From Tubulanus polymorphus (taxonomy: Eukaryota > Animalia > Nemertea), in NCBI RefSeq assembly GCF_964204645.1, contig NC_134025.1:16839101-16903100 (forward strand): 64,000 bases of DNA, given 5' to 3'. Every line of letters begins with the position of its first letter. Position 1 is the stretch's first letter. The notes beneath the pieces are model-generated. The model had not been told where the DNA came from. It worked only from the letters and a program-made list of their open reading frames with translations, and made no database searches. Position numbers and translations under genes: made by a program. Below are positions 34,195 to 56,089 of this stretch, in pieces.

Positions 34195-34870
34195 AGGCTT
34201 GTCGACAAGCAACGCGACGCCTACCGACTCCTACCGACGCAACTGAGCAACTGCAATCGCAGCCCAGCTTATAATGTCGACTGCGCTCCGATTCGCAGCA
34301 ACTGAGGCCGACTAGCGGGATATGAGATCCTCCCAGTTGCTTCCCTGCTTATGTCGGTTGCGATTACTAGCAACTGCAACAGCTCAAATGGTCACGTGAT
34401 AAGCATTTTGAGAATAAATTCGAATTATTAGGAAATATATTTCTATTAGAAAAGCTATTTCTTTGAGACTTTGATTTTTCTGATTCTGTTTTGAATACAA
34501 CGTGCTAGCGACATCATATAACGATGGCCGCTCACACCATAATTCTCCCAATTTCGTTTCTAGATCTTCGGTCCAGTCCTCTGCCGTGCTGAAGGTTTGG
34601 TTTACGTTTTGAACTACTTGAATTTGAAAGTTTATGACTAATTACGAATGACGCTAACTAGCGGTGATAATTTGTACTATGTATACGCGGTCTCTCATTG
34701 GCTGGAACCCCTGCGCTCAGTTCCGTCGCGTCGCAGATGAGCTTATGTCGGCTGCGATCGAAAGCAACTGCCCGCCTTCCGTAGGCCGGAGTAGAACATG
34801 GGCAACTAGCCGGATACGGCTGGCGACGAGTCGGTAGGCGTCGCGTTGCCGTCGCAAGCCGGCTTATGTC
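34195..34870. mobile_element. Left part of a MITE split by Polinton copy B (right part 52802-52920)
   Basis: gtcgacaagcaacgcgacgcctaccgac at ~34201 is inverted at ~52880-52908; repeated GCTTATGTCG motifs. Confidence 0.75.
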
Positions 34871-35468
34871 AGTAATAGGGGTAATGGGCTTTCATACCAA
34901 AGGTCGAACGGTCGAGCTCATTAAAAAACAAAACATTAAAAGTAATTTAAAACTATAATATATTTTCATAACCGTGTGCATTTTATATTAAAACTAAATA
35001 TTTATTCTAAGATATCAATAATTTAAAAAGCATATTATATTAAATCAATTGGTCGCTCCACTTCGCTACCGCTCCGCTCCGCGACCAATTGATTTATTTA
35101 CAATACACAAATTCATATAATCAAATATATTCAAATAATAATAATTATTCTATTATTCAACTGAAATACACACGGTTATGCAAATATATTATAGTTTTAA
35201 ATTACTTTTAATATTTGTTATTAATGAACTCGACCATTCAACCTTTGATATGAAAGCCCATTACCCCTATTACTCTTAAAATATTCATATAAATGAATAA
35301 CATTTAAATCATTGAACTTCTAAAATCAATTTTAATAAAAAATTTAGTATTAAAATGGAAGCAAATAAGTACTACTGTCCAACATGTAATATCAATATAG
35401 ATAAATCCCAAAAAGCAAGACACAATAAAACTAAAACACATTTAGAGAATAAATTGAAACTAGAATAT
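34871..35468 (+). repeat. Left terminal inverted repeat (first 404 bp form an imperfect hairpin)
   Basis: Reverse complement of 52204-52801 with about six mismatches counted by eye; includes the first 38 codons of the Zn-finger ORF. Confidence 0.95.
35330..35357 (+). promoter_or_regulatory. Palindromic start motif TTTTAATA-N10-TATTAAAA(TG)
   Basis: Recurs at 39399-39425, 46237-46262, the right TIR and 55648-55675 (-). Confidence 0.55.
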
Positions 35469-35894
35469 GAAGATGATATATTAGAAACTAAATTAGATGA
35501 ATTAAAGAATGAAAAAGAAGCATACAAATGTGATACATGTAATCAATCATTTAGTGATAAAAGATATTATAATGAACATTTAAAATCTAAAAGTCATATT
35601 AGAAATATGAATAATGATATTTTAGGAGAAGATTATTTTGATAATGATAACGATAAGAAACATAAGACAATTAAAAGAATAAGAAATAAATTAAACAATA
35701 AAAGACCATACATGGAAGATGTAAGAAAATATATTAATTTATTGGATAATAAAAAAGATATTGAGATAACCGAAGCATTTAAAAGTGATATTGGTCCAGC
35801 AGCTATCGAGTTTAAATTTCATAAAGGAAAAACATTAGAAGAAAATAAAAAAACATTTAGAAAATATGAAAGAAATAATAAAAATAATAACTGA
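35355..35894 (+). CDS. C2H2-type zinc-finger protein; probably the frameshift-separated N-terminus of pPolB
   Basis: YCPTC..HNKTKTH and YKCDTC..HLKSKSH; overlaps polB, with an A7 run at 35847-35853 joining the frames. Confidence 0.75.
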   Translation: MEANKYYCPTCNINIDKSQKARHNKTKTHLENKLKLEYEDDILETKLDELKNEKEAYKCDTCNQSFSDKRYYNEHLKSKSHIRNMNNDILGEDYFDNDNDKKHKTIKRIRNKLNNKRPYMEDVRKYINLLDNKKDIEITEAFKSDIGPAAIEFKFHKGKTLEENKKTFRKYERNNKNNN

Positions 35895-38800
35895 TGTTGA
35901 ATATCCTAAAATTAGTATATCAGTTAAAGTAAAGTTTATAAAATCTGAAGATAAACCAATATACAATATAAATTCTCATTCACAACATATTATATCAAAA
36001 CAACATATAGATGACAAATTAGATAAATGTTATAATGAAGTAAAAACTAAAATAGAAGAGAAATATTTTGAAGGATCTGGTTTAATATTTGATGAAATAA
36101 TATTTATGACTTTACATGTTTATAACACAAAATATAATAAGTTAACTAAATCAAAACCAATTGATGAAAATAATGTATCATATTATAAAGAACCAGATAT
36201 TGAAGCATCGAGTTATATTAAACTACCATTTAAAACTAATGCTGTTATAAATGTACAAAATGAAGATGATAAATGTTTTCTATGGGCTATAATAAGTTGT
36301 TTACACCCAACAGAAGATATTACACATAGTTTTAGATTAACTCATTATAAACCATTTGAAAATAATTATAAGATAGATAAGTATCCTGTTAGAATTAAAA
36401 ACATCCCAAAGATAGAAAGAGATAATAATATAAAGATAAATGTATCTGATTTAATCAAATTACCAAATACAAAAGGTAACAATATAAAACATTATACATT
36501 AGAACCTTTATACCTATCAAAAGATTATGATTCAAACGGTGTTATAGATATATTATATTATGAGAATCATTATATGTGGATTAAACAAATAGATTTATTT
36601 TTTAAATCAGAAAATGATCACCATAAAATATATCTTTGTAGAAAATGTTTACATAGATTCAGTAATGAAAGTACATTATTAAATCATAAACATTTATGTG
36701 AAAATCATGATTATTGTAAATTAGTTTTACCAAATGAAAAGGATAAAATATTAGAATTCAAAAAATATGATTACAAAAATAAAGTTCCATTTGTAATATA
36801 TGGAGGTTTTGAATCATTAAATAAAGAATTAACTGATCAAGATAGAAAAGAAATATATTATAAAAGAAAGAAATTAAATTCTAATGAAAATGATTTTTCA
36901 GATGAACCACCAAAAACAAATACTATTAAAAAGATTCATCAATCAGCTGCAGCTTTCGGGTTATATATTAAATCTGATTATCCAGAACTAATTGAAAGTG
37001 AATATTATCATTACAGAAATGAAAATGTTATCAATCATTTTTGTGACTTATTAATTGAATATGAAATAAGATTTAGTAAATTATATAATACAAATATAGA
37101 AATTATAATGACAGAAGAAGATAAAGAAGAATTTGCGTTTGCAGGTAAATGTTATTATTGTGAAAAGATATTTAATTATAAAGATAAAAAAGTAAGAGAC
37201 CATGATCATTTGAATGGAAAGTTTAGAGGCGGCGCACATGAGAATTGTAACTTACAAGCTAAGAAAATTAACTTTGTACCAGTTATATTTCATAATCTAT
37301 CAGGATACGATGCACATTTATTCATCAAACAGTTATGCCATAAAATAGAAGAAATCAATAATGAAATAGAAATATTAAATTCAAATAGATCAAAAGATAA
37401 AATACCAACTTATAAATTTAGAATGTTAGCTAAAACATCTGAGAATTATATATCATTCCAATTTGGTTGCCTAAGATTTATAGATTCATATAGATTTTTA
37501 AATAGTTCATTAGATAACTTATCAAAATCATTAGTTGATGATGAATTAAAAATATTAAAGCAACATTACCCAAATAATGATGATTTTCAATTAATGAGAT
37601 ATAAAGGAGCAATTCCATATTCATTTTATAAATCACATAATGATTTCAATATGACTGAATTATTGAAAGAACAATTCTATGATGAATTAAAAAATGAATA
37701 TGTTAAAGATGAAGTCTATAATAGAACATTGAATATTTGGAATCATTTCAAAATAGAAAATCATGGGCAATTAGTAGATTTATATTTAAAATCAGATGTA
37801 TTATTATTAACCGATATATTCGAAAGGTTTAGAGATGTTAACCTAAAATATTTCAACATTGATCCTTGTCATTGTTATTCATCACCAGGATTAACATGGG
37901 ATTGTGGATTAAAATTTACAAATATAAAAATGGATTCGTTAACAAATATAGATCAATTACTATTATTTGAAAAATCTATAAGAGGAGGAGTTTCAGGTGT
38001 ATTAGGTGATAGATATTTCAATGTAAATGATAACCCTGGATATAAGTTATTATATATAGATGCAAATAATTTGTATGGTTGGGCAATGATGGAACCACAA
38101 CCTTATGGAGTATTTGAATTAACTGAAGTTTTACAGAATGAAAATAATGATAAATTTGATTGGAAGAAAAGAATCCTAGATATTGCAGATGATTCAGATA
38201 CTGGTTACTTCTTTGTTGTAGATTTAGAATATCCTGAACATATTAAATTTAAATCTAGAAATCTAGCATACTGCCCCGAACATAAAACTGTAACTCATGA
38301 AGAATTATCAAATTATCAAAAAAGAATTAAACCCGAAAATCATATTCATACAGAAAAGTTAATGGTAACTCAAGAAGATAAATATAATTATATAGTACAT
38401 TATAGAATGTTAAAGTTTTATCTAAAACAAGGAATGGTTCTAAAAAAAGTACATAGATATATTTCATTTAGTCAATCTAAGTGGTTAGAAAAATATATAG
38501 ATTTTAACATCAAACAGAGAACTAAAGCTAAAACTGATTTCGAAAAAGATTTCTATAAGTTAATGAATAATGCATTCTATGGTAAGACTTGTGAAAACAT
38601 TAGAAATAGAAATGATATTGAGTTAGTCAGTAATGGTAAAAGAATTAGACACTTACAATCATATCCTAAGTTCATTGGTAACAGAATATTTGATGAAAAT
38701 TTAGCCGCAGTTAAGATGAGAAGAACATCAATGAAATTTAATAAACCAATCTATGTTGGCGCTTCAGTTTTAGAATTATCAAAATTACTAATGTATGAAT

Positions 38801-39393
38801 TCTATTATAATATATTACAACCACTTTTTGGAGAAAAACATATAGAAATATTATATTTTGATACCGATTCTTACATATTAAAGATAAAAACTGATAACAT
38901 AACTGATGATTTAAAAACATTAAAACATCATTTTGATTTCAGTAATTATCCTAAAGATCATGACTTGTTTAGCAATGATAATAAAAAAGTTCCCGGTAAA
39001 TTCAAAGATGAATTAGGTGGTGAAGAAATGATTGAATTCATAGGTATTCGATCTAAAATGTATTCATATAAAACTAAAGAACATGAAGCTAAAAAGTTAA
39101 AAGGAATAACCAAAAGTGAAGTAGAAAAGAATATTCATTTCAAAGATTACATCAATTGTATATTCAATGAAGAAGTTAGAAAACATAAGATGAGATGTTT
39201 AAGATCTGAAGATCATGAAATGTTTATTGAAGAAATTGAAAAGATAAGTCTAAACCCATTTGATGATAAAAGATATATTCTGGATGATGGAATTCATACA
39301 GTTGCTTATGGTTGCAATTTAGATGAATACTTAAAATTTAAAAGAGAAGAAACAAAAGAGAACGAGATAACGAAAAGAATTCTAACGTGTTAA
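35866..39393 (+). CDS. polB: Protein-primed family B DNA polymerase with embedded endonuclease VII-like domain
   Basis: FHNLSGYD (ExoII), YLKSDV (ExoIII), YIDANNLYG, KLMNNAFYGK, YFDTDS; CYYC..RDHDHLNGKFRGGAHENCNL. Confidence 0.97.
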   Translation: MKEIIKIITDVEYPKISISVKVKFIKSEDKPIYNINSHSQHIISKQHIDDKLDKCYNEVKTKIEEKYFEGSGLIFDEIIFMTLHVYNTKYNKLTKSKPIDENNVSYYKEPDIEASSYIKLPFKTNAVINVQNEDDKCFLWAIISCLHPTEDITHSFRLTHYKPFENNYKIDKYPVRIKNIPKIERDNNIKINVSDLIKLPNTKGNNIKHYTLEPLYLSKDYDSNGVIDILYYENHYMWIKQIDLFFKSENDHHKIYLCRKCLHRFSNESTLLNHKHLCENHDYCKLVLPNEKDKILEFKKYDYKNKVPFVIYGGFESLNKELTDQDRKEIYYKRKKLNSNENDFSDEPPKTNTIKKIHQSAAAFGLYIKSDYPELIESEYYHYRNENVINHFCDLLIEYEIRFSKLYNTNIEIIMTEEDKEEFAFAGKCYYCEKIFNYKDKKVRDHDHLNGKFRGGAHENCNLQAKKINFVPVIFHNLSGYDAHLFIKQLCHKIEEINNEIEILNSNRSKDKIPTYKFRMLAKTSENYISFQFGCLRFIDSYRFLNSSLDNLSKSLVDDELKILKQHYPNNDDFQLMRYKGAIPYSFYKSHNDFNMTELLKEQFYDELKNEYVKDEVYNRTLNIWNHFKIENHGQLVDLYLKSDVLLLTDIFERFRDVNLKYFNIDPCHCYSSPGLTWDCGLKFTNIKMDSLTNIDQLLLFEKSIRGGVSGVLGDRYFNVNDNPGYKLLYIDANNLYGWAMMEPQPYGVFELTEVLQNENNDKFDWKKRILDIADDSDTGYFFVVDLEYPEHIKFKSRNLAYCPEHKTVTHEELSNYQKRIKPENHIHTEKLMVTQEDKYNYIVHYRMLKFYLKQGMVLKKVHRYISFSQSKWLEKYIDFNIKQRTKAKTDFEKDFYKLMNNAFYGKTCENIRNRNDIELVSNGKRIRHLQSYPKFIGNRIFDENLAAVKMRRTSMKFNKPIYVGASVLELSKLLMYEFYYNILQPLFGEKHIEILYFDTDSYILKIKTDNITDDLKTLKHHFDFSNYPKDHDLFSNDNKKVPGKFKDELGGEEMIEFIGIRSKMYSYKTKEHEAKKLKGITKSEVEKNIHFKDYINCIFNEEVRKHKMRCLRSEDHEMFIEEIEKISLNPFDDKRYILDDGIHTVAYGCNLDEYLKFKREETKENEITKRILTC

Positions 39394-39422
39394 TCAAATT
39401 TTAATAAAAATATGTTATTAAA

Positions 39423-39776
39423 ATGGAGAGTAAACAAGCAAACAGTGAGAACAACAAATTATTTCTAGATAGAATTAAAGATATCACAAATGTAAAATCT
39501 GCAGATTATAAATTCAAAAAGTTAACAGAATTAACAATCCATATGAAATATCTAATTACAAATATTGATACAGTTACTAATAACTATGGAGATAAATTAG
39601 TTATTCACTTAGAATATGAAGGATTAAAAGGAAATACATATAAATTCAGAACATATTTACCGGATAGATTTCATAGATTATCAAGTGAAGATCTAGAAGA
39701 ATTATGTTCTGGTGATTTCTATTTCGTATACAAAGGTAAGAATGAAAAAGGGCACCATGAAATAGATTTCGAATAA
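39423..39776 (+). CDS. Small conserved protein next to polB (possible OB-fold ssDNA-binding protein)
   Basis: Homologue at 7377-7704; beta-rich pattern with YG and LP motifs; function inferred only. Confidence 0.6.
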   Translation: MESKQANSENNKLFLDRIKDITNVKSADYKFKKLTELTIHMKYLITNIDTVTNNYGDKLVIHLEYEGLKGNTYKFRTYLPDRFHRLSSEDLEELCSGDFYFVYKGKNEKGHHEIDFE

Positions 39777-39793
39777 GAAAATATGTAAAATAA

Positions 39794-40552
39794 ATGGCGG
39801 AATTAAAAGAATACAGAATATTTGTTGATTCTAGAAGGCTTACAAATTATAAATCTCATAATTTACTAGTTCAATTAGATAGAGAATTCAAGAATTGTGT
39901 AGATTTGAAATTAGTCAATATAAGTTTATGTAATTCTTTTTACAATATATCGAATAAAACTATTGAACATAATACTTTTTTAATTCATATTAGAAATGTA
40001 AATAAATGGTTTCATCTAATTTTAAAACCAGGATTATATAATTTAGAAACATTAGCTCAAGAAATCAATCGTAGAGCACGGTTGAAAATTAGAAAAGATG
40101 ATAAATTTTTAATAAGATTTTTAAAAAGTGATAGCTCAAATAAAATTAAAATAAAGGTATTTGATGAAAGTCAACATGCATTTATAGTAAAAAAACCACT
40201 AGCTAAATTGCTAGGAATTGCACCAGATGTTGTTACAGTAAACGTAGAAGGCATTTCAAATATAATACCTTTTACACACTTTTATATTTATTGCAATTTA
40301 ATCGATCCTACAAAAACATTCGAAGCAACTAAAGATATAACTTGTAATTCTGGTTTACAAAACATTTTACCATTGAAGAATGTTAAAGAATTTGGAACGC
40401 AAATAAATTATAATTTAACAGAATGTGATTTCAAACCTTGTATTCCACATTTCAATAATTTCAAATTAGAAATAAGAAATCATAATGGTTATTTAATTGA
40501 TTTGAATAACTTTCCTGTAATATATGAATTAGTTATAGGATGTAGAGAGTAA
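39794..40552 (+). CDS. Minor capsid protein (penton, single jelly-roll)
   Basis: IFVDS, NSFYNIS, PGLYN, FYIYCNLI, EIRNHNGYLIDL pattern and size typical of Polinton pentons. Confidence 0.8.
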   Translation: MAELKEYRIFVDSRRLTNYKSHNLLVQLDREFKNCVDLKLVNISLCNSFYNISNKTIEHNTFLIHIRNVNKWFHLILKPGLYNLETLAQEINRRARLKIRKDDKFLIRFLKSDSSNKIKIKVFDESQHAFIVKKPLAKLLGIAPDVVTVNVEGISNIIPFTHFYIYCNLIDPTKTFEATKDITCNSGLQNILPLKNVKEFGTQINYNLTECDFKPCIPHFNNFKLEIRNHNGYLIDLNNFPVIYELVIGCRE

Positions 40553-40568
40553 TTTTTTCATTATATAA

Positions 40569-40925
40569 ATGAATATAACTGTTGGGCCGAGCATATGTTT
40601 TGGATTTGATTTTAAACGTGAGAAAGAAATGAAATTTAACGTTACTGATGTAATTACACATATTAAAAATATTGCATTTTCTAATGAAACAACATTTGAG
40701 TATGAAACAACAATAGATAAAGAAACTTTTAATGTAGAAAAGATTACTAATTTAATTAGAGAATCTTTAAGATTTTATGAATTAGATGAAGATTTTATCA
40801 TCGATGATATTAAAAAAATAATAATTGAAATATATACAAATGAAACTAGTAATGAAATAAATGTTGAATTAATCATCACTAAGATAACTAAATATTTTGA
40901 TGATAGTAATTTCTTTGATAAATAA
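40569..40925 (+). CDS. Hypothetical acidic protein
   Basis: Open frame in a tightly packed gene array with T6-N7-TAAATG start. Confidence 0.7.
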   Translation: MNITVGPSICFGFDFKREKEMKFNVTDVITHIKNIAFSNETTFEYETTIDKETFNVEKITNLIRESLRFYELDEDFIIDDIKKIIIEIYTNETSNEINVELIITKITKYFDDSNFFDK

Positions 40926-41147
40926 ATGAGTGATAATAAGTGGATAATAACTGGATTATATAATGGCGCATTACTATCAGTTGGAACTGTTGGTTATTCA
41001 ATGGTATTAAAAAAAGTATTTAAAATGGGAAGTGTTAATGTTGATAGATTTGATATAAATGATATCTTAAAATTAACATTAGCAGTTACTTTATCTAATT
41101 TAACTATTGATTATTTGGAAAAACAAAAATATATTCCTCCCATATAA
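40926..41147 (+). CDS. Small hydrophobic/amphipathic protein
   Basis: TAAATG start abutting the upstream stop; GLYNGALLSVGTVGYSMVL and ILKLTLAVTLSNL segments. Confidence 0.75.
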   Translation: MSDNKWIITGLYNGALLSVGTVGYSMVLKKVFKMGSVNVDRFDINDILKLTLAVTLSNLTIDYLEKQKYIPPI

Positions 41148-41173
41148 ATGCATAATTTTTTTTTGCTAAATAA

Positions 41174-41596
41174 ATGGCTTCTGCAATTATAACTATTATA
41201 GGATCGGCAATTGTTAACGCTTTAGCATTTACTGGTGGCGGTTATTTATTTAAGCATATTGATAAAAATAGTTCATTAGGAGAACAAAGAAGACATAACT
41301 TAGCATTAGAGAAATACAATAAAGCAGCAGAAGAATATAGAGAAAAAAGACAAAACTATATGGATTATATTAACAAGGAATTATATGATCAGAAGATTTC
41401 ACATAGAGATTTTCAATCAGTTGATGATGCAATGAGTTTATATAACGCGGTAACCAATAAAGAAAAATTACATCTATACAAACCTAAATTATCAGATTAT
41501 TATACCCCAAGTAATGAACAGAAGAAATATGAAATAATATGGATTTTAGGTGGAACTGTTATTGTTATATTTGTTGCTTATAAGTTTACTAATTAA
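41174..41596 (+). CDS. Putative membrane-active virion protein
   Basis: Hydrophobic N-terminus, EQRRHNLALE coiled segment, C-terminal TM IIWILGGTVIVIFVAY. Confidence 0.75.
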   Translation: MASAIITIIGSAIVNALAFTGGGYLFKHIDKNSSLGEQRRHNLALEKYNKAAEEYREKRQNYMDYINKELYDQKISHRDFQSVDDAMSLYNAVTNKEKLHLYKPKLSDYYTPSNEQKKYEIIWILGGTVIVIFVAYKFTN

Positions 41597-41621
41597 TTAT
41601 TTATTATTTTTTGTTAAATAA

Positions 41622-42083
41622 ATGGATGATAAAGTTGATAATATTGATATTATTCCTCATGATATAAATAAAACTAAATTAAAAATATATTTAGAAAAAC
41701 AAATATTAGAATTTGAAAGTGACTTAAAAGTAAAAAAGAAAAAATATCTAAAAAGTAAAATTATATATTATTTGATTATAAATGGTTCGGTTACAATTAG
41801 TTCTGTAATAACATTTCTAGCAATATTCAGTCCATTAACACCTTTAGCTATATCAATTGGTGTGTTAGGATTAAGTTCAAGTGTTTTAACTGGTATAAGT
41901 TCGAAATTGAATATTAAAAGTAATAAAGAAAAAATTAAAACTAATATAAAAGAAATTAATAAATTAAAGAATACACTAGATTATATAATAAGTTTAAATG
42001 GTCATATAACAGTTGAAGAACAAGATAAATTATTAAAAGAATTAATAAATTATCAATTTTTTAATTATATAAATGGCAGATAG
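41622..42083 (+). CDS. Two-TM membrane protein flanked by coiled coils
   Basis: IIYYLIINGSVTISSVITFLAIF and LAISIGVLGLSSSVLTGI. Confidence 0.75.
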   Translation: MDDKVDNIDIIPHDINKTKLKIYLEKQILEFESDLKVKKKKYLKSKIIYYLIINGSVTISSVITFLAIFSPLTPLAISIGVLGLSSSVLTGISSKLNIKSNKEKIKTNIKEINKLKNTLDYIISLNGHITVEEQDKLLKELINYQFFNYINGR

Positions 42084-43458
42084 TTTTCCAAAAGATTTCC
42101 AATATAATAAATCAATTAAATATAATATTCCAGCAATAGATTTTAATAAAGATATTACATATAGAAATGAAGTTTTAGATTCATTAACTAATTTAGAAAT
42201 TTATGTTACTGAAACTAATAATTTTAATGCAAAGATGGAAAATATATTTCATGTATATTTAATTAATTTTAAAAAATTGAAAGATGAAAAACAATGGTTA
42301 TTAAAATCTAACATGAAGTATTGGCAGAACCAATTAAATTTTGCTGTTTATTGTGCAACAACAGGATGTGGAATAAGTTGGAATGATCATTTGAATAATT
42401 CTAAATATAAACTAATTCAAAGTTTATTTAGATTTCATACATACTTTCAAATCAGAATAATATTAAATGAATTAGAGTGCGCTTTACCAGGATCTAGGTA
42501 TTTTAAAGAATTAGATAATAATATTAATTTATCAAAGTTTTATAAAATTTGTAATGAATTTAATATAGATATAAATAATTCTGATTTTAGAACAAAAATT
42601 GTAACAATAAGATCACTTTCTTGCCCCAAAAAGATTGCAGAATATTGTGCACTTCCCATACCATCTAATAGTTTGTATAATATCTATAGTCATAAATTAG
42701 GTTATGGTAAAATAGAAACTAAGGATTTAGAAACATTAAATTTTAATAAATTACCGACATTTTATGATAATTTAAAACAAGAAAACAATAATGGTTGGGT
42801 TTATTTCATTTTAGGAAATAATGAAGGTTTTACAAAATCAGGTATACAAAGAATAAATCAATCTATTAGAACTTATTTGATATGTATTCTAGGTGCACAA
42901 GTTGAAACAAGATCACCGATAATTGGAAATTTAAATACATCATTCGATACACAAAAACAATTTAAAGTTTTATTTGAAGATTCCATTCATAATGATAAAA
43001 ATAGATCGATTCCAGAAAACATTATAAGATATCAAAATTATTTAGATAAATCTCATGTAAGACTAAATTATTGTATAGGCCCTAATCTATTAATTATTTC
43101 TAATGATTTAGTATTGAAGATGGGAAATATAATTGGTTATAATAATCTAATTAAAACTGCAACAATAAATAATTCATTTGGATTAAATGATATAAATAAA
43201 AAGATTATTACCGCCCCAAAATTAATGGAAGGTGAAAAAAATAAAAAACATATTCAATCAACAGAAACTAAAACTAAGAATATTAAATTAAATAATGATT
43301 CTAAACCGGATTATAATACATCAGAAAATATTAAAACTGATAATATTCAACATGATATAATTAAAACTGATAATGATAATAAATTACATGAAAATACTAA
43401 ATTAGCTATAACTTGTATAGGAATTGTAATCGGAGGAATATTATATTTTAAATTTTAA
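42073..43458 (+). CDS. Conserved 461-aa hypothetical protein with C-terminal TM anchor
   Basis: Long open frame; WQNQLNFAVYCATTGCGIS motif; LAITCIGIVIGGILYF tail; homologue in copy A. Confidence 0.85.
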   Translation: MADSFPKDFQYNKSIKYNIPAIDFNKDITYRNEVLDSLTNLEIYVTETNNFNAKMENIFHVYLINFKKLKDEKQWLLKSNMKYWQNQLNFAVYCATTGCGISWNDHLNNSKYKLIQSLFRFHTYFQIRIILNELECALPGSRYFKELDNNINLSKFYKICNEFNIDINNSDFRTKIVTIRSLSCPKKIAEYCALPIPSNSLYNIYSHKLGYGKIETKDLETLNFNKLPTFYDNLKQENNNGWVYFILGNNEGFTKSGIQRINQSIRTYLICILGAQVETRSPIIGNLNTSFDTQKQFKVLFEDSIHNDKNRSIPENIIRYQNYLDKSHVRLNYCIGPNLLIISNDLVLKMGNIIGYNNLIKTATINNSFGLNDINKKIITAPKLMEGEKNKKHIQSTETKTKNIKLNNDSKPDYNTSENIKTDNIQHDIIKTDNDNKLHENTKLAITCIGIVIGGILYFKF

Positions 43459-43474
43459 GTTTTTTATTATGTAA

Positions 43475-44875
43475 ATGGCAGAAGGTGGGGAAGATATTCC
43501 ATTGAATCCTTTTGGTGATGAACCCGGTATAAGTGATGAACCACAACCTGATTTTAATGAAACTAATATTGATAATGATGATGAATCAGCATATAATTCT
43601 AATTTAGCAGATAGTGGTTCTAAAGTCCCATCAACAGAAGAAAATGATAGAAGAATTAGATCGAGAATACCTACTGAAAATTTAGACCCAGGTTTAGAAA
43701 GAGAAAATTTAGAAAATTATGAATTTATGTATGAATTTCAACATGTATTTAAAGAATCTGGATATAATATAAATGATAGAGGCGCTAGAGTTTTAGTACA
43801 AGAATTAAAATCTTTAGATGGTGAATATTATTATCATTTGAAAGATGATTATTATATTGATATCTCTTATAAAAAACAAAACAAAATATTAGCAGAATCA
43901 ACTTTGCTTAAGTCTGACTCATTACTATCTAGAATTAAAATAATAAGAAATGGTAATGAAATAGAAGATGTAACACAAGAAGAAATTATTAAAAATGAAA
44001 GAGTATTTAAACAAAGAATTAATGAATTATTTGAAACAATCAAAGATAATCCAGAAACAGAAACAACTTCTGAACAGAATAAAACTTCCAAAACTAGTAA
44101 ACTTAAATCAAATAAAGTTCCAATTGAAAAACTTTTACCGAATGGATTACTTGATGCAACAGATCAAGAATTAGAAGATTTAGATATATTTTCTGATAAA
44201 GCAATTAGAGAGATTATTAGTATAAGAAATGCATCTGATAAAATTGCGCATGATAAAAGTATAAGAGATTTTAAAATTAGAACTTTAGAAAAAGAATTAA
44301 CTGATAAAAATAAAGAAATAGAACAATTAAAGTCTGATTTAGATCATCAAGTAATTGATGAAATAGAATATAGGCAAAAAGAATTACGTTTAGAAAAAGA
44401 AAAAGATGATTTAGAATATAACATAGAATTACAAAAAGAAGAAATTAAATTATTATTAAAATCATATGATTATAATATTAATAGATTAAAAGATGTTTTT
44501 AAAAGATATCTAATAAAACCAGATTCTAAAATATCATTGAAAGATAGAATAAAATTATTATTTAAGTTTGAAGGAATAACAATTCTTTCAATTCTAACAG
44601 CTGTAACTATGTTATTTACAACAATAGGTTTAGCAATATCAAATGCTTTGAAATCTACTCCTACTCCCAATAAACCGGATAAACCCCCGAATGACAATAA
44701 TTCTATACAAGATAAAGTTAAGGATGGTTTAAAGAAATTAGCAAAATATTTATGGGAACTATCTAAAAAATCTGCTGCAGCATTGCCAGGAGTTATTGCA
44801 TCAATTGTTGGTTTTATATTGAAATCTGCTGGGAATATTCTTAACTTTGCTGCTGAACATATTATTTTATTTTAA
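43475..44875 (+). CDS. Acidic/coiled-coil protein with C-terminal TM helices (last helix cut by a frameshift)
   Basis: Homologue at 572-2007 continues LITVVSAIIFGLV; 1-nt indel near 44873. Confidence 0.8.
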   Translation: MAEGGEDIPLNPFGDEPGISDEPQPDFNETNIDNDDESAYNSNLADSGSKVPSTEENDRRIRSRIPTENLDPGLERENLENYEFMYEFQHVFKESGYNINDRGARVLVQELKSLDGEYYYHLKDDYYIDISYKKQNKILAESTLLKSDSLLSRIKIIRNGNEIEDVTQEEIIKNERVFKQRINELFETIKDNPETETTSEQNKTSKTSKLKSNKVPIEKLLPNGLLDATDQELEDLDIFSDKAIREIISIRNASDKIAHDKSIRDFKIRTLEKELTDKNKEIEQLKSDLDHQVIDEIEYRQKELRLEKEKDDLEYNIELQKEEIKLLLKSYDYNINRLKDVFKRYLIKPDSKISLKDRIKLLFKFEGITILSILTAVTMLFTTIGLAISNALKSTPTPNKPDKPPNDNNSIQDKVKDGLKKLAKYLWELSKKSAAALPGVIASIVGFILKSAGNILNFAAEHIILF

Positions 44876-44979
44876 AATTACAGTTGTAAGTGCTATTATT
44901 TTTGGGTTAGTAAATATGATATCAAAAAATATCAAGTAACCATGATTAAAAATAAATAATTAATTTCTTTGTTAAATAA

Positions 44980-46227
44980 ATGAGTGGGAGTTATATCAAT
45001 CCTTCTAAGAATCATAGAATATCTAATGCTATTAAAGCAGAAAGATCACATCAGATAATTACTAATAACCCTTCTAATATTAATCCTGGTGAAACTTTAT
45101 ATGTTAGAATTCATAGATTAACACAAAATACTTTTTATGTTCCAAATAGTATTTATTTATCAGCCGATATAAAAGTAACTGGCCATGATAACAATTATGT
45201 TGTTGATAATGTTGAAAGATATTTGATTAAAAAATTAACTATAAAGATTGGTCCGGAAACAGTTTTCTCATTAGATGATTATAATTTATTTATGCATTAT
45301 AAAGATTAATGGTTAACTAAAGAAAATAGAAATAATATGATATTTCAGGGTATTCAATCGGAAAACCATAATAAATTAAGATCAGGAGCTAATGACGCAA
45401 TAGTAACTCGTGCCACAGATAATTTGATAAAAAAGATTTATGGAAGCAAATATAAAATTCCATTAGACTTTGAATTGATAAATAATAATGCACCTTTATA
45501 TAAATACGCAATTCAAGAAGACGTTATATTCGAAATAACATTTGCTCCTGTAAATGAAATTGTATTATCTAGCGTTGTTAAAGATATGAGTTATGAATTA
45601 TCGAATATATGTTTAGAATATGATACAGTAACTGATGAAAATATTGCTAACACAATTCAAACTCAATACAATCAAGGATTTTCATTATTATATGATTATA
45701 TTGATAAATTTAAAACCGTAACTATTAATGCAAATGATGAAATTATTAATGAGAATATTAACTTCCCAAGAAGATCTATTAAAGGTATATTAATATTTTT
45801 TACCATTGCAACATATACTAATGGTGCAATAAATGTTGATAATTATTATAATCCTGAAATAACAAAAGTAAAAATAACTATCGAAGGAATAGCAAATAAA
45901 ATATTTTGTCAAGGAATGAGAATGATTGATCAATGGCCAGAAATTAGAAAACATTTTATGAATGAAAATGTGAAATCATCTGAAAATTGTAATATTAATC
46001 AAATTGATTATTATACCGGTAATAAATATGCATTATGGTTAGATTTTAAAACAACAGAGGATAATTCATTACATGGTTCTGGAAAAAAACTACAAAACAC
46101 TAAAGATGGAATACAATTATTCATGACAAAGAAAAAGGGAAGCCTAAATTTCAAAATGCATATTTATATTATATCTGACGCGCAATTAAATATTGTAAAT
46201 TCACAATTAGATAGTGTTATGTATTAA
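44980..46227 (+). pseudogene. Major capsid protein (double jelly-roll), single nonsense mutation
   Basis: 416-codon frame with TAA at 45307-45309 where copy A has TTA (Leu); beta-rich; size and context fit the MCP. Confidence 0.85.
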
Positions 46228-46259
46228 AATTTTAACTTTAATAAAAAATCTTATATTAA

Positions 46260-47099
46260 ATGGAAGGAGGTAAAGTATATAAACATATTCCATACATCGA
46301 TACACATGAAAATAATGATGGTTTATATTATGTAATACCTTGTAATATAGCTTTGATATTTGATCCTATTTTCAAAATTTATAAAACTAAACTAATAGAA
46401 ATCGATAATAATAAAAGTGGTGTTGTTGATAATTTAAGTAATGTAATTGATAATAATGTAATACCTACTACAGTAATACCTACTACAGTAATACCTACTA
46501 CATCTAATAATGTAATACCTACTACATATAATAATGCAATAATGTTAAATGTTAGTGAAAATAGAAATTATTGTGATTATTGTAAAGGTGAATTTTCAAA
46601 CGCTCCATCAAATTGGAATAAACATATGAATACAAAGGTACATATTACTAATGTTATAGAACGTGTTGGTTTAAGAGAATTTATAGAACACCCATTTAGA
46701 TATGTTACAAAGTTTGTTTCAAATAAAAAAGTAAATGGTAAAGAATTATATGAAGATTTTTTATTAGCAACACCTAATAAAGATGAATTAGATTTAACTG
46801 ATGCTAATGAAATATTAGGATCAAACACTGTAAATGAAATATTAGGAGCAAAGACTAATAAAGATTCTATGAAACATAAAGTAGAAAATAATGATAACTT
46901 TGATTGGATGAATAAGCATAACAATGAAACAACTATTGATGATTCGGTAAAAAAGGTGAAAAATAAGTATAAAAATAATAAAGAATTTGAAGAAGAAAAT
47001 TCGGTAGAGAATTTGAAAAAATTGATGGGGTATGATAGTGAATTGGAGAGTGATGATGAAAGTGATTCAGAAAGTAATTATCTAACACTCAAAAAGTAA
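46260..47099 (+). CDS. Zinc-finger protein with VIPTT repeats and acidic tail
   Basis: YCDYC..NWNKHMNTKVH; repeated gtaatacctacta units; absent at this position in copy A. Confidence 0.75.
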   Translation: MEGGKVYKHIPYIDTHENNDGLYYVIPCNIALIFDPIFKIYKTKLIEIDNNKSGVVDNLSNVIDNNVIPTTVIPTTVIPTTSNNVIPTTYNNAIMLNVSENRNYCDYCKGEFSNAPSNWNKHMNTKVHITNVIERVGLREFIEHPFRYVTKFVSNKKVNGKELYEDFLLATPNKDELDLTDANEILGSNTVNEILGAKTNKDSMKHKVENNDNFDWMNKHNNETTIDDSVKKVKNKYKNNKEFEEENSVENLKKLMGYDSELESDDESDSESNYLTLKK

Positions 47100-47158
47100 T
47101 AAAGGTTGAAAATTGTATAAAATAATAGTAAATAAAAAAGGGGTTTTTAAGTATTTAA

Positions 47159-47238
47159 GGTATCTAATAGGGTATCAGGTATTAGGGTATCAGGTATTAG
47201 GGTATCTAATGGGGTATCAGGTATTAGGGTATCTAATA
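47159..47238. repeat. 16-bp-type tandem repeat (gggtatcaggtatta) between convergent gene blocks
   Basis: Direct read. Confidence 0.85.
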
Positions 47239-47254
47239 CATAGTCATATAAATT

Positions 47255-47866
47255 TTATTTTATAAATTTATATTCATAGGGAAATTGTAGTCTCAGTAAT
47301 AATTTTGAACCTTTATTATTCTTTAATTTATTCATATATTCATCGTGTAATTCAGTAGGTATAATTTGATTTTCTTCCAATGATTGTTGCATAGATTTTT
47401 TATCTTTGTTATAAAATAAAACTAGAAATCTTATATCCTCCCTAAAGTCTTAAACAATTGAATTATATTTTTGATTTAAAACCCATGTTGTTATCCCAAA
47501 ATGTCTCCCAGAGAAAGCTAAATAACATAACTCACTTTCTCTCACTTTTGAATCATGTAAATTAGCGCAATCATCTATAATGAATAATGTATTTGATCCT
47601 TTATAAGTATCAATTGCTATTTTTATACAATTATCTAAATTTTCTTTTACTGTTTTAGGGTCTAATATAATAAACTTTTTCTTCTTAACTATATCTCTAT
47701 TATATGTTTTATTCATTTCATAAGTAGGACAGAATAATATTATATTATCAAAATGATTCTTATAAATAGTTTCTAACAAATCTAATATGAAATGTGTTTT
47801 ACCACAGTTTGTTACTCCAGTAACTAACATATTATGCGGTTCAAATATAAATAAATCTTTATTCAT
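47255..47866 (-). pseudogene. Packaging ATPase with one nonsense mutation
   Basis: GVTNCGKT, FIIDD, GRH; TAA at 47450-47452 replaces Lys; frame continues DFREDIRFL..QFPYEYKFIK. Confidence 0.9.
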
Positions 47867-48971
47867 TTATTCTTTTAATTTTACTAGATAAAATCCATTC
47901 ATTAAATTTATCATCGTATCCTTTATATTTCACCAAAGAATACTTTTTTCCTTTAAGAGTTTTTGTTTTCAATACTTTTTCTATTTTGTATTCTATTTCA
48001 TCTGGATTTGGTACAAGTGATAATTCTTGTTCATAGAAATAACCTAATATTTCTTCATCTTTTAGATCTTCTAATTTATAAACAAAAGGTTTAGTTAATA
48101 TTATCTTTTTAATCTTGAATATTTCTTCTGTAAAATTTGGGGTATAACCTTTATAAAATGTTTTTCGATATTTAGATATTCTTACGTGTTGTCCTATTTT
48201 AAATTTAGGTTCACCGAAATCGTGTGTAACAAACGCTCCATATAAATTATTCCAAACTATTTCCGAATTATCTTCTTTTCTAGCTTGTATAGGTTTCATA
48301 TTTATAGAACTATGTTTAGAATTATCATAACCTTTCACTAAATCATCTAACACATCGATATATTTATATGTTTCATTAGCAGTAAAGTATTTCCACATTC
48401 TAGTTTTCAATGTTTTATTAAATCTTTCTATAATAGATGCTTTTTTATCTGAGTGTGTTGAAAAATAATCTACATCGTTATCAGATAATAGTTTTTTGAA
48501 ATGTTTGTTATAAAATTCCTTACCTTCATCAAATTGTATCTAATCTGGAATAGCTTCTTTAAATATAGATTTAAAAGCATTTGTAACTTCTATTCCAGTT
48601 TTATTTTTGATTGGAATTGACCATGCGTATCTACTGAATATGTCTATAACATTCAGTATCCAGAAATATCCTTTGTTGTATTCCTCTAAGTTCTTCATAT
48701 CAATTAAATCTGCTTGCCATTGTTGATCGATATATGAAACCATAACTTTTCTTGTTAAATAAGTTTTATCCATTTTCTTGTGGATTTGATATGTTGGTTG
48801 ATTTTGTAACCATGATTTTAATTCGCTATATTTTATACCACCATGTGGGCGCCATACGGCACCATCACCATTATCAGATTTAATTTTATTCCATAATTCT
48901 GAAACGTTAGAATATGATACTTCACTCTCTGGGTTATAATAAAAATCTCTTAAATATTGTTCTTTTTTCAT
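47859..48971 (-). pseudogene. int: rve integrase with chromodomain, one nonsense mutation
   Basis: QWQADLIDM, IQFDEGKEF, ERFNKTLK, chromodomain; in-frame TAG at 48540-48542. Confidence 0.92.
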
Positions 48972-48977
48972 CTTATT

Positions 48978-49346
48978 TTAATCCATTAATAATAATTTAG
49001 ATTTAGTTTCAATGGCTTTATGATTTGACTTATTTTCTGGTATGATAGGTTTATTGTCATTGGAATCATCTTTATCATCAGATTTGAATTTTGATTTATA
49101 TATTACACCGGATAATATAATAACTGTTACTAATCCAATTGTAATATATAATTTATAATTACTTCCAGCATTAGAAGAATCAGATGGATTATTATTTGAA
49201 TCAATATCAGATAAAGTCTGTGATTCATTTATATCAGTTAATTTCTTTTTCTTAGCTTTTTTTAATTCTGAAGATCTTTTACCTAATTCTCTTGCCCATT
49301 TAATTTGTTTCTCGGATCTAGCCTTTTTCTTAACGCCATCACTCAT
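48978..49346 (-). CDS. Small basic protein with one TM helix
   Basis: Homologue of 5895-6251; LYITIGLVTVIILSGVIY. Confidence 0.8.
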   Translation of the reverse strand: MSDGVKKKARSEKQIKWARELGKRSSELKKAKKKKLTDINESQTLSDIDSNNNPSDSSNAGSNYKLYITIGLVTVIILSGVIYKSKFKSDDKDDSNDNKPIIPENKSNHKAIETKSKLLLMD

Positions 49347-49371
49347 TTATTTTAGTTAATTTTTGTTCTGA

Positions 49372-49941
49372 TTAATTTTTTGTTTCGACGTTTGGTTGTA
49401 GTACATCTGTTTCATTCTTACCTGATTTATATTCCATAGACTTGATATTCGAAAATGTAATGACACCAGTAGAAATTAATGTCATAACCGATCCTAATTG
49501 AAATGAAGCATAACCAACCCATTTTTGTAATTCAGTCATAACTAAATAGTCATTTTTCAAATCACTATATAATTTATTTTCATCATCAATTGGCATTAAC
49601 TGGTTACATAATTTTGAATAACATTTGACAATACCATCTGAAATAGAATCATTTATTCTAGCTAATCTTGCTTCTTCATAAATCTTAAAATATTTTATTA
49701 CTTTATCTGGTTTCATAGCATCTAATTCTTGAAAAGTAATGATTCTATTTAAAAACTCCTTAGTTTTTCCACCGGCAATCAATAGTTCTAGATGATGCTT
49801 ACAATATAAATAGTATTCATAATCAATATTACAATTAACTTGAGCACAATTAGTTACAACTGTATCGTTATTATCACTTATACCCAAATCATCTAATGTC
49901 TTTTCAATATCAATACTATTCTTATTAGATTTCTTTGACAT
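49372..49941 (-). CDS. Conserved Polinton hypothetical protein
   Basis: Homologue of 5357-5962. Confidence 0.85.
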   Translation of the reverse strand: MSKKSNKNSIDIEKTLDDLGISDNNDTVVTNCAQVNCNIDYEYYLYCKHHLELLIAGGKTKEFLNRIITFQELDAMKPDKVIKYFKIYEEARLARINDSISDGIVKCYSKLCNQLMPIDDENKLYSDLKNDYLVMTELQKWVGYASFQLGSVMTLISTGVITFSNIKSMEYKSGKNETDVLQPNVETKN

Positions 49942-50353
49942 TTATATTAGAGAAAAAAAGCAAAAAAATATTATAAGTATTCTTCAAATGATACTAGCTA
50001 GTTAAAGCTAAAGAATTCTAGTATTGACTACTGATACTAGCTATTTGAATTTAAAGAATTTCTATTTGAATCTATTCAAAATATAAAGTATTCTCTTTTG
50101 AAAAGAAAATATTAGAAATATAATAGAATTCACTAGCTAGTTGAAGTTATTGTTTTTTTATTATATTTTATTTGAATTCTATTTGATATCTCACTACTTT
50201 TGTTTATCTATTAGGAGCAGTAATTATAACCGTCCAGATAAGTCATTTCGGATCCTTGATATCAAATTCCTCAACGTATTGTTCATTATTTGGATCATTG
50301 TTCCATTGATCAATAAATTTCTTTGCCTTTGTTAACTGTTCTAAAGATAACTG

Positions 50354-50917
50354 TTAATCTAGTTTATTAGATTTAATTATGTTTTCCTTCTTTTCTAAAG
50401 GTCTTAAATTCTTCCAATTCCAAATAAGTTTTTTATTGTATTCATCATTCATGTTAAATTTAGATATTGGTAACACGTGATCAATATGGTAATAATCCCC
50501 ATAATTATCTATATTCATTTTATCATCGAATTGAAATATAATCCATGATTTGAGAAATTCATCTGAACAACCCAATAAATTAGATAGTGTTTCTGAATGT
50601 GTTTCTTTGTTGAATAATTGTGTTAATCTAGATCTTAAGCATTGTTTCAATCTAAAATTAAGATCTGTTTGATATCTTTCTCTCATATATTCTGCCATAT
50701 AATAATTATAATGTTCTATATTATCTTCTCGATATTGTTTAGTATATAGTTTAGTGCAAGTTTTACAGCAATATTGAAAACCATCTTTGCTAATCTTACG
50801 CTTACTAAATTCTGTTAATGATTTATCTAATTCACACTTAGAACACTTCTTGTAATATATATTTATAACACCAGTATTATTTGTAATATTGATAATTTGT
50901 GGTTGTTCTGGTTCCAT
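50354..50917 (-). CDS. HNH endonuclease with N-terminal zinc ribbon
   Basis: KKCSKC..CKTC; YHIDHVLPIS..NLRPL..ENIIKSNK. Confidence 0.85.
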   Translation of the reverse strand: MEPEQPQIINITNNTGVINIYYKKCSKCELDKSLTEFSKRKISKDGFQYCCKTCTKLYTKQYREDNIEHYNYYMAEYMRERYQTDLNFRLKQCLRSRLTQLFNKETHSETLSNLLGCSDEFLKSWIIFQFDDKMNIDNYGDYYHIDHVLPISKFNMNDEYNKKLIWNWKNLRPLEKKENIIKSNKLD

Positions 50918-51054
50918 TTATTATATGTATTTTTTACTAAATTGGTTAATATTTTAGAATCCTCTTCCATTTCTTCGACCAACGTCATCCTTTTTCATTC
51001 CTCGCTGCTTTTGATAAGTTGTTTCGATTCCTTGATATCTAAATCATACCACTG

Positions 51055-51410
51055 GGCAAAACCGCGCATTCGTGCGCGCTTTTGATCAATGCGCATGCGC
51101 TAATCATAATTATATTTACATAACGAATATATAATTATGTAAATAGAAACGACCGAACACAGAAAATATCAAAACGTGTTCGCATTAGGCAAACCGCGCA
51201 TTCATGCGCGCTTTTGCTAAATGCGCATGCGCTAATCCTAATTATATATTCATTCTGTAAATTCTGTAAAATAGAAACGACCGAACACAGAAAATATCAA
51301 AACGTGTTCGCATTAGGCAAACCGCGCATTCATGCGCGCTTTTGATCAATGCGCATGCGCTAATCCTAATTATATATTCATTCTGAATAGAAACGACCGA
51401 ACATAAAAAT
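51055..51410. repeat. Three ~130-bp GC-containing tandem repeats with TGCGCATGCGC
   Basis: Units start at ~51056, 51188 and 51316. Confidence 0.9.
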
Positions 51411-52065
51411 TCACCAAACAGATTTACACAATACATTATACAAGTTGTTCGGCCGTTTCTTCCAATACATCATTTGATTTCTATAAATACAATTTATAAT
51501 TACAAGCATTTTTTCAATTGCCGGTAAATATTTAACAACAACAACAAATGTTAAACTTAATCATTGGAGTCTTAATGTTTTTGCAATTCTTATATAGTTT
51601 CTTCATCGATCTTTTGTGATTCTATTGGTTTGATATCCATTGCTGTTGATTCCTCAGTCAGAAAGAGTATCTTGAGTTTCTCTATCACTTCTTGATGCGT
51701 ATGGCGTTTTATTAATCTAAAAGATATTAGCGGTAACTCTAGCTATCTAAAACATATACTAAATACACTTAAATATATCTAAAGGTTTCATATTTAATAG
51801 CCATAATAACTACAACAAACAGTACTTACATTTAGATTTAGAATTGTAAACTATAAACTCCTAATTTCGTTTCGAGAGATAGAATATCCTGAGCACAATG
51901 TTACAGCGTATGTTCATTTCTTGCCACGTCATCTGGTTCCGGTTCTAGAGTGTTCTCTGCACGTTTGTAATAATGAGTCATAAGTCTCGGCGTCATAGTA
52001 ACAGCTGTAACAGCTGTGAATTTATAGATTTATTCCATAGCTCTTTACATTGAATGTATATAGGT

Positions 52066-52317
52066 TCAAATAGAATCATGTTCTAGTATAAACATCGGAT
52101 CCTTGATGTCAAATTCCTCAACGTATTGTTCATTATTTGGATCATTATTCCATAATTCAATAAATTTCTTTGCCTTTGTTAACTGTTCTGAATATAACTG
52201 TAAATATTCAAGTTTCAATTTATTCTCTAAATGTGTTTTAGTTTTATTGTGTCTTGCTTTTTGGGATTTATCTATATTGATATTACATGTTGGACAGTAG
52301 TACTTATTTGCTTCCAT
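52066..52317 (-). CDS. Short zinc-finger ORF starting in the right TIR
   Basis: First 38 aa identical to 35355-35894, then a different C-terminus. Confidence 0.6.
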   Translation of the reverse strand: MEANKYYCPTCNINIDKSQKARHNKTKTHLENKLKLEYLQLYSEQLTKAKKFIELWNNDPNNEQYVEEFDIKDPMFILEHDSI

Positions 52318-52801
52318 TTTAATACTAAATTTTTTATTAAAATTGATTTTAGAAGTTCAATGATTTAAATGTTATTCATTCATATGAATATTTTAAGAGT
52401 AATAGGGGTAATGGGCTTTCATATCAAAGGTTGAATGGTCGAGTTCATTAATAACAAATATTAAAAGTAATTTAAAACTATAATATATTTGCATAACCGT
52501 GTGTATTTCAGTTGAATAATAGAATAATTATTATTATTTGAATATATTTGATTATATGAATTTGTGTATTGTAAATAAATAAATTGGTCGCGGAGCGGAG
52601 CGGTTGCGAAGTGGAGCGACCAATTGATTTAATACAATATGCTTTTTAAATTATTGATATCTTAGAATAAATATTTAGTTTTAATATAAAATGCACACGG
52701 TTATGAAAATATATTATAGTTTTAAATTACTTTTAATGTTTTGTTTTTGAATGAGCTCGACCGTTCGACCTTTGGTATGAAAGCCCATTACCCCTATTAC
52801 T
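52204..52801 (-). repeat. Right terminal inverted repeat (hairpin 52398-52801)
   Basis: Reverse complement of 34871-35468. Confidence 0.95.
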
Positions 52802-53247
52802 TATGTCGAACCGATTGACGAGCAACTGGCGGCCTCTCGTAGGCCGCTAGTTGCCGCTAATCGGCGATAAACCCAGTTGCGTCGGTAGGCGTCGCGTTGC
52901 TTGTCGACATACGCCAGCCTTAAGAGGACGTCAATGGGACGTCAAGATGGAATTAAGTCTGGATTACGTCACTTTGATGCCGTATGGAGGACGTCAAGAA
53001 ATTAACGTAATTTTGACGAAATAAAAATACGTCTTAAATGATGTCGAGAAAACTTTCATTTTTTACTCAAAATCCAACGTCTGGTTTTGCTGTTTTAAGG
53101 ACGTAATGAAAACGTAAAAATGCCTAGTGGGACTGAATTGCTGATGAAATTTTGAATCTAAAACAATGATATTTAATGTTATTGATTGAACCATTTACGC
53201 CGAGAGGTGCGGATCTGCACTTTTACTGAAATCCTGCGTATGGCCCA

Positions 53248-54439: not shown

Positions 54440-54563
54440 TTATTTAAGAGAAAAATTAAACAGTTTATAAAATATTTGCTAGTTTTTAATTAAATATTTT
54501 ATAATCATTTTTAAAATATTAAACTTTTAAATGATTAAATCAAATAACAATTAAATTTACAGC

Positions 54564-54975
54564 CAAACAATTTAACATTTCAACTGTCAAACAATTTATC
54601 ATTTCAACTGTCAAACAATTTATCATTTCAACTGTCAAACAATTTATCATTTCAACTGTCAAACAATTTATCATTTCAACTGTCAAACAATTTATCACTT
54701 CAACTGTCAAACAATTTATCATTTCAACTGTCAAACAATTTATCATTTCAACTATCATTTCAACTGTCAAACAATTTAACATTTCAACTGTCAAACAATT
54801 TATCATTTCAACTGTCAAACAATTTATCATTTCAACTGTCAAACAATTTATCATTTCAACTGTCAAACAATTTATCATTTCAACTGTCTTGTCATTTCAA
54901 CTGTCAAACAATTTATCATTTCAACTGTCAAACAATTTATCATTTCAACTGTCAAACAATTTATTATTTTAACAG
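54564..54975. repeat. 24-bp tandem repeat (atttcaactgtcaaacaatttatc), about 16-17 copies
   Basis: Direct read, highly homogeneous. Confidence 0.95.
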
Positions 54976-55029
54976 TCTATTAGATATTTAAATCATTTAA
55001 CTCAATTCAATAATTATAATGTTGAATTG

Positions 55030-55650: not shown

Positions 55651-56089
55651 TTTAATAACAAAACTTTTATTAAAATGAATCCAACGCATATAAATATAAA
55701 TATTCACGGTTTTAAATATGAATTATTTCACTCACACTTTTGTATTGAATAATCTATCAATTTATATGTTATTCATATATATTTTATTCATTTATATGAA
55801 TATTTTAAGAGTAATAGGGGTAATGGGCTTTCAGGTTAAAGGTTGAATGGTCGAGCTCATAAAAAATGAAAAATATGCCTTAAAATAACTACAGATTTTT
55901 TCCACACCGTACACATGAATTTATACGTTTATCAAAGACGACAAAGAATAAGGACATAAATTCAACCAACAGGATATTGAAGGGCAGTGGATCAAAATAT
56001 TTAAGTTCCATATATTGGTAGCACAAAAGAAGTCTACTTAAGCAGCTGAACCACTGACCTTTAAAAAGTGAGCACTTGATTTTATAATT

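Follow-up and report, generated by a model that had tools for sequence, protein, structure and literature searches.

Animal Polintons/Mavericks (adintovirus-like) are among the closest described counterparts of the element reported here. As far as the covered text of three surveys goes, they have in common with it a pPolB, an RVE integrase, an A32 ATPase, a capsid-like gene, TIRs of several hundred bp, a 6-bp target-site duplication (TSD) and a 5'-AG (PMC8097293, PMC8502044, 10.1101/2023.08.22.554363). The terminus reads (AGT)2 in animal Polintons/Mavericks, by the same portions of text, and AGTAAT in the focal family. How Polintons start replication and exit the chromosome has so far been modelled, not shown. 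The hairpin termini of AAV and poxviruses flip-flop, with both isomers present, and go with a Rep/HUH nickase or a resolvase.

No TIR hairpin or palindrome is described in the covered text of the three animal surveys. In the Halocafeteria preprint, again in the sections covered, endogenous virophages (subtypes 1, 2, 5 and 6) and PLV subtype 4 have terminal palindromes of ~52 nt, for which a role in hairpin priming is proposed (10.64898/2026.07.28.741278). An earlier note on the present DNA held that self-complementary Polinton TIRs are undescribed; this stands for the covered text of the animal surveys but not for the protist virophages/PLVs. The preprint was the only source on terminal palindromes found by Polinton-directed searches of full-text literature; bioRxiv supplements may describe such ends.

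The window analysed here is a 64,000-nt stretch of the genome of the nemertean Tubulanus polymorphus (NC_134025.1, positions 16,839,101 to 16,903,100). It holds an element whose TIRs each begin with a 404-nt hairpin. The hairpin is real and conserved; the function discussed below is a proposal made from sequence.

The focal element and its surroundings

The element and its parts, in window coordinates, are:

34865..34870, no strand: left target-site duplication TATGTC
34871..52801, no strand: Polinton/Maverick element, 17.9 kb
34871..35468, + strand: left TIR, 598 bp, with the hairpin and the first 38 codons of ORF1
34871..34980, + strand: outer arm, the true element end (5'-AGTAAT...)
34895..34918, + strand: asymmetry zone (TIR positions 25-48), with a GGTCGA repeat of 8-bp period
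35041..35096, + strand: central 16-bp stem, with a 24-nt C-rich loop at 35057-35080
35165..35274, - strand: inner arm, the inverted second copy of the terminus, always adjoined by the element body
35355..35894, + strand: zinc-finger ORF1, its frame broken near 35.85-35.89 kb in the focal copy
35866..39393, + strand: pPolB region, enclosing an HNH insert
37111..37257, + strand: HNH/Endonuclease VII-like insert in pPolB (PF02945, E 2.3e-4, below the curated cut-off)
45337..46227, + strand: probable major capsid protein, C-terminal piece, a lead only
47450..47866, - strand: A32-like packaging ATPase piece (PF04665, E 9.6e-11)
47859..48971, - strand: RVE integrase with chromodomain, in two pieces
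52204..52801, - strand: right TIR, with a hairpin of the same isomer at 52398-52801
52802..52807, no strand: right target-site duplication TATGTC

The pPolB expected of a Polinton was matched above the cut-off (PF03175, E 1.6e-15). The RVE integrase match fell on a broken piece (PF00665, E 5.8e-5, below the cut-off); the intact homolog in family B, a sister Polinton in the same genome, scored E 2.4e-10, and the integrase modules of the two share 77% DNA identity. Taken together, pPolB, RVE integrase, A32 ATPase, TIR and TSD identify the element, on its predicted gene content and ends, as a Polinton/Maverick, several reading frames of which are broken in this copy. ORF1 is likely the N-terminal part of the replication gene, since it is contiguous with the pPolB N-terminal sequence in family B. 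Feature look-alikes of the pPolB N-terminus are mostly arthropod, and the HNH insert has no PDB match. For the capsid candidate, look-alikes at 0.96-0.98 include clusters with Capsid_NCLDV on 13-18% of their members, and have low recognition value; a double jelly-roll capsid protein had no Pfam match. Among the 19 ORFs, Pfam returned neither an adenain-like protease nor an HUH/Rep nickase or telomere resolvase; only the sub-threshold HNH insert came up, and it is also present in family B.

Several other features of the window were recorded. The element sits in a high-copy host repeat (34600-34870 and 52802-52900), and ~1000 reads span the empty site. Within the element, an ORF at 50354-50917 (- strand) has an HNH-like motif by eye and no Pfam match at 0.01, and a direct repeat array of ~128 bp occupies 51059-51419. 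At 54501-54977 and 55761-55872 lie a 24-bp tandem array and the inner-type arm of a TIR from a related copy that is truncated; this is probably the same kind of derivative as three pPolB-less loci described below (L162-L164). At 62360-64000, a variant terminus of ~62 bp is joined to a pPolB 3' fragment (92% identical) in reverse orientation.

Anatomy and spread of the hairpin

The earlier note had read 34871-~34980 as inverted at ~35165-35274, around a 16-bp stem (35041-35056/35081-35096) with a 24-nt loop, and had placed the same isomer at 52398-52801. Self-alignment bears all of this out. The arms of ~110 nt pair over 57 nt at 91% and 66 nt at 86% (self-comparison and gapped self-alignment); the outermost 26 nt are perfectly complementary, the symmetry ends exactly at the terminal base, and a poorly paired middle separates the arms from the central stem and loop. 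The left and right 598-nt TIRs have 6 differences, 4 of them within the hairpin, and one right-TIR difference disrupts the 16-bp stem at that end. When the TIR was folded and self-aligned, as the note had suggested, a single long imperfect hairpin was obtained at -107.8 kcal/mol, against -25.8 +/- 4.3 for 100 shuffles (z -19.3), none of which folded as well. No Rfam family came near threshold; a structured RNA gene was considered and rejected, the sole Rfam match being far below threshold.

The hairpin is not peculiar to this copy. All 40 scored genomic matches span essentially the whole TIR at 96-100% identity. Every hairpin bin is also covered by Illumina reads from another sample labelled as the same species, and among these reads the loop of a shorter variant occurs. 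An assembly artefact, or a hairpin confined to one copy, which the earlier note had named as refuting its reading, is excluded by these matches and by the raw-read coverage. In the 268-Mb genome the loop is matched 333 times and the terminal 22-mer 1202 times, the latter mostly as close inverted pairs among the 100 places listed. At least 149 hairpin-bearing ends, at least 148 of them distinct and 152-449 nt long, occur among the matches listed; the sample comprises 30 loci chosen by TIR likeness (biased to the focal isomer), the first 100 exact loop matches listed, and picks from motif lists. The short hairpin classes have unrelated interiors and often near-perfect stems, and hairpins of 189 and 268 nt occur on ends that bear ORF1/pPolB (L036, L055, L061). 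The hairpin is thus a family-wide module, conserved despite turnover of its length and sequence. One locus (L150) has an insertion of ~440 bp in the loop.

Outside this genome, a metagenome contig whose pPolB is 79% identical (L169) carries an element that begins with a 257-nt hairpin of different interior (z -12.9), its end being placed by the common AGTAAT terminus and at one end only. Both strands of this hairpin fold alike (-69.4 vs -69.5 kcal/mol). Its loop and the 35057-35080 loop have CACTTCG in common within otherwise unrelated interiors, which may be chance. Among the 80 metagenome and 3 viral loci of distant relatives, a terminal hairpin was seen only in L169; the others have 28-44% pPolB identity, are mostly short and may stop before the element end. 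The terminal motif was found in none of the viral contigs.

A single isomer and integration by the outer end

A flip-flop telomere would leave flop junctions, with an outer-type arm at the body. A genome-wide pattern search found none, against 318 inner-type junctions, and counted 243 outer-type termini. The loop was inverted relative to the body in 0 of 124 placements. Among 254 distinct arm contexts, all 96 arms with T at position 35 abut the body (L118 confirmed), and two body-joined arms carry C35 with the loop not inverted. These counts are of integrated copies, and flop molecules that do not integrate would be invisible to them; such molecules, or an MVM-like resolution in one orientation, may occur. 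The outer ends share a 6-bp TSD in 28 of the 29 end pairs picked by coordinates. Neither a solo hairpin nor an inner-type arm at a host junction was present among the fetched family-A loci (family A being the focal family). With no flop junction, no solo hairpin and no inner-end insertion, two suggestions of the earlier note, a flip-flop hairpin telomere and a mini-element with two integrase ends, are unsupported for integrated copies. In one short-read genomic run, no read-end pile-up indicative of an extrachromosomal form was detected, and no strand change was seen at the 15 of 72 joints listed. Reads cross-map between the two arms at 88% likeness, which blurs any signal of flop molecules.

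Asymmetry and joint evolution of the arms

The two arms differ in a fixed way. The GGTCGA repeat is intact in the outer arm and carries C-to-T changes in the inner arm: positions 27/28, 35, 39 and 47 are C outside and T inside, and at position 35 this holds for 136 of 138 ends. Where transition mismatches recur, the strand that carries the 3' end has the G-T pair at 12 positions, against 2 for the opposite strand (p 0.013, counted per position). The 3'-end-strand preference is seen in 148/148 ends, which owe it to a few shared sites and are not independent. A count of mismatches by sequence context (p down to 1e-11) was dropped because it counted one site many times. In family A the fold of the 3'-end strand is the favoured one and a single orientation is kept; in L169 the preference is weak, its few transitions running in the same direction as in family A. 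The 8-bp repeat is intact at the true ends of both family B and L169 and altered in the inner copies of family A and L169. We infer that this repeat (TIR positions 29-46) is likely the mark of a usable end, disabled inside.

Apart from these fixed differences, the arms evolve together. Variant haplotypes with 2-7 substitutions at positions 11-21 occur in both arms in 16 of 20 ends, 3 further ends having been set aside as indel artefacts. Over arm positions 48-90, identity is 0.81-0.98 between an outer arm and the inner arm of the same end, and ~0.4-0.8 with arms of other length classes (10 representatives). For example, L147 has a fresh inner-side copy of the outer alleles with the old inner stub still behind it, and in L061, L140 and L141 the outer allele is present at individual sites of the inner arm. 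Arms are homogenised in this way when template switching by fold-back takes place in a quasi-palindrome, and such switching probably acted here, mostly with the inner arm copied from the outer, as would be expected if synthesis begins at the terminus. Copying in the other direction could be hidden if the resulting ends cannot integrate.

Ends without the inner arm and breakage at the central stem

Family B offers a comparison within the same genome. Its right part fills window positions 1-7789, its left end lies at G000:C1:16829191 (L278), and its TSD is CAATTT. Compared with family A, the structural module is ~90% identical, pPolB is 62-72% identical with the same HNH insert, and the integrase module is arranged differently. 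The family-B TIR is about 120-130 bp (95 termini counted), and the inner copy is absent in 29 of the 30 termini examined. The exception, L303, is a solo 86-bp palindrome of two family-B ends with a perfect TSD CATCTA (L303:~1440-1525, G000:C4 near 15439600). It could have arisen by fold-back or internal deletion. L303 demonstrates integration of a unit whose ends are both intact, and a unit of this type offers an origin for the family-A hairpin. The family-B pPolB also has an intein-like insert (L270:3246-4698), with a LAGLIDADG-like domain at the polymerase C motif (Pfam E 2.8e-4 and 1.7e-3, below cut-off); inteins in animal Polintons would merit a look.

The inner arm is also absent from 4 family-A ends (L059, L087, L088, L108); two of them belong to a 4.9-kb pPolB-less derivative with a perfect TSD (L162), which has lost it from both TIRs. 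L162, L163 and L164 are all pPolB-less derivatives, having family-A ends without the inner arm and long ORFs of 8-residue repeats, and L162 itself is largely mirror-symmetric. Since family B does without the hairpin and ends without the inner arm have been mobilised, the hairpin is an accessory, not required for propagation and not tied to the HNH insert. A link between the hairpin and that insert was ruled out, as family B has the insert without the hairpin. Some deletions are common to both TIRs of one element (L087/L088, L109/L110), which suggests that end-to-end panhandle copying still occurs; a local origin need not replace it.

Some ends have lost the outer arm. Among loop-containing loci, 6 of 7 such losses have their breakpoint within the central stem, at TIR positions 171-179 (post-hoc binomial p ~2e-6), and their flanks all differ; in two more ends the break is at ~182 and ~189. 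The lost outer halves were not found within 10 kb. The loci with the outer arm lost and breakpoints at the central stem are L043, L045, L046, L047, L051, L072, L113 and L125. This pattern suggests that the hairpin forms in vivo; comparison of the flanks fits chromosomal breakage and aberrant integration alike. Spread through the host genome, the hairpins also look prone to breakage.

What the hairpin might do

Our preferred reading, which takes up the remaining suggestion of the earlier note and is held tentatively, with slightly less than even confidence, is of a polarised fold-back end that would cap the displaced 3' strand and regenerate a duplex origin for protein priming. It starts from the observed anatomy, conservation, covariation, asymmetry, single isomer and outer-end integration, and each of its functional steps is conditional. 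During strand-displacement replication, the 3'-terminal strand would fold onto the inner copy; this would protect the end and rebuild a duplex there locally, from which pPolB could re-initiate protein-primed synthesis. Priming by a TP within pPolB is the published polinton model, in the text covered (PMC11161782). Copying would pass through the outer arm, loop and inner arm in order and so leave a single isomer, no flop arising because the ordered copying would begin at a protein-primed folded end. The nascent strand might occasionally fold back and homogenise the arms, although any quasi-palindrome can become homogenised passively, as a by-product. The C-to-T changes would allow the 3' strand to stay paired, through G-T, yet make the inner copy unusable to the integrase as an end, and selection would maintain the disabled inner end. 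The module would aid propagation as an accessory. A bolder version, which we consider unlikely, is a polarised telomere-like end: the 3' strand would fold onto the disabled internal terminus and present a duplex end to integrase and pPolB on single-stranded or cruciform DNA, so that an integrated copy could start replication and exit the chromosome without flip-flop. If true, this would be a concrete answer on Polinton release.

Other explanations account for part of the evidence. The hairpin might be a self-perpetuating relic, a fold-back copy or captured two-ended mini-element that was fixed once, is repaired by template switching and is under selection only to keep the inner end disabled. 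Propagation of family B without a hairpin, the mobilised ends that lack the inner arm (L162) and the solo palindrome L303, whose TSD indicates that such units arise and integrate, would all fit. However, a neutral and fragile palindrome should be deleted, and only 4 inner-arm-less ends were seen against 148 intact ones; the fold-back has also persisted in several subfamilies and in L169 although its interior was replaced, and the direction of the mismatches is biased (12 vs 2). We therefore regard a relic as less probable than not by some way, if a serious contender. It is quite unlikely that the hairpin is a release device, in which a chromosomal cruciform, its base at the element-host junction, is cut by integrase, the pPolB HNH insert or a host resolvase. 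Symmetry that stops exactly at the terminus agrees with this, as do the 6 of 7 outer-arm losses at the central stem with no outer half within 10 kb, which resemble the tip breakage of extruded palindromes. Tip breaks, however, speak for fragility, not function. The same HNH insert also occurs in the hairpin-less family B, and HNH/VSR inserts in pPolBs are described, in the text covered, as variable and possibly derived from homing endonucleases (10.1101/2023.08.22.554363; PMC11161782).

In a parvovirus-like scheme, the folded 3'-OH would prime synthesis into the body, with the flop hidden either by selective integration or by asymmetric resolution of the kind seen at the left end of MVM. Like a parvovirus primer, the folded 3' end is indeed paired flush with the body template; the MVM left origin works on one arm only, through a small asymmetry, in the portion of that paper covered (PMC1185569); and the same model has been proposed, by the text covered, for the protist virophage/PLV palindromes (10.64898/2026.07.28.741278). 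Yet those palindromes go with non-pPolB replicases, so far as that text describes them, while the focal element has a pPolB. The 19 ORFs include no HUH/Rep or telomere resolvase, there are 0 flop against 318 inner-type junctions, and the loop is not inverted even behind an outer-type end. Hairpin priming of this kind strikes us as improbable. That the 404-bp unit moves on its own, as a mini-element with an integrase end on either side, is scarcely credible, even though both ends face outward with the terminal motif and a solo unit exists in the sister family (L303): the fetched family-A loci, drawn from at most the first 100 places listed per pattern, include no solo unit or host-joined inner end, and the genome-wide numbers of inner-type arms and of body-joined inner arms are close (341 vs 318, by slightly different patterns).

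These sister families, with near-identical structural genes and the same pPolB type, with and without an end hairpin, amount to a natural experiment, in which conversions, losses and breaks at the tip can be read from hundreds of copies. The evidence weighs against a simple flip-flop, directs attention to the 3'-end strand and makes the 8-bp repeat the feature that likely determines whether an end is usable; all three points could be taken straight to the bench.

Comparison with known systems

The focal ends and the Halocafeteria palindromes, in the preprint text covered, have in common a palindrome within the TIR beside the TSD of an RVE-integrated element. The Halocafeteria palindromes are ~52 nt long, belong to a protist host and go preferentially with non-pPolB replicases, and the text covered gives no isomer or covariation data. 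The focal family differs from them, on that text, in having hairpins of 152-449 nt on pPolB-bearing elements, a polarised asymmetry, a single isomer and hundreds of copies. With the MVM left end, as presented in the covered part of its source, the focal hairpin has in common an imperfect palindrome flush with unique sequence and a small fixed asymmetry (PMC1185569). Unlike parvoviruses and poxviruses, the focal element has no flop isomer and no detected Rep/NS1 or resolvase, and it integrates by RVE with a TSD.

The nearest analogy in working is with Streptomyces telomeres, where, by the text covered, a 3' single strand folds on an internal copy, priming is by a terminal protein and there is one orientation (PMC5449611). 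Those telomeres differ in being bacterial, in having several short palindromes, in needing Tap/Tpg, and in repair through a local 13-nt palindrome, not long-range pairing, again in the portion covered (PMC5449611). By analogy, and with no homology claimed, the focal ends might work most like the folded 3' ends of Streptomyces with TP priming.
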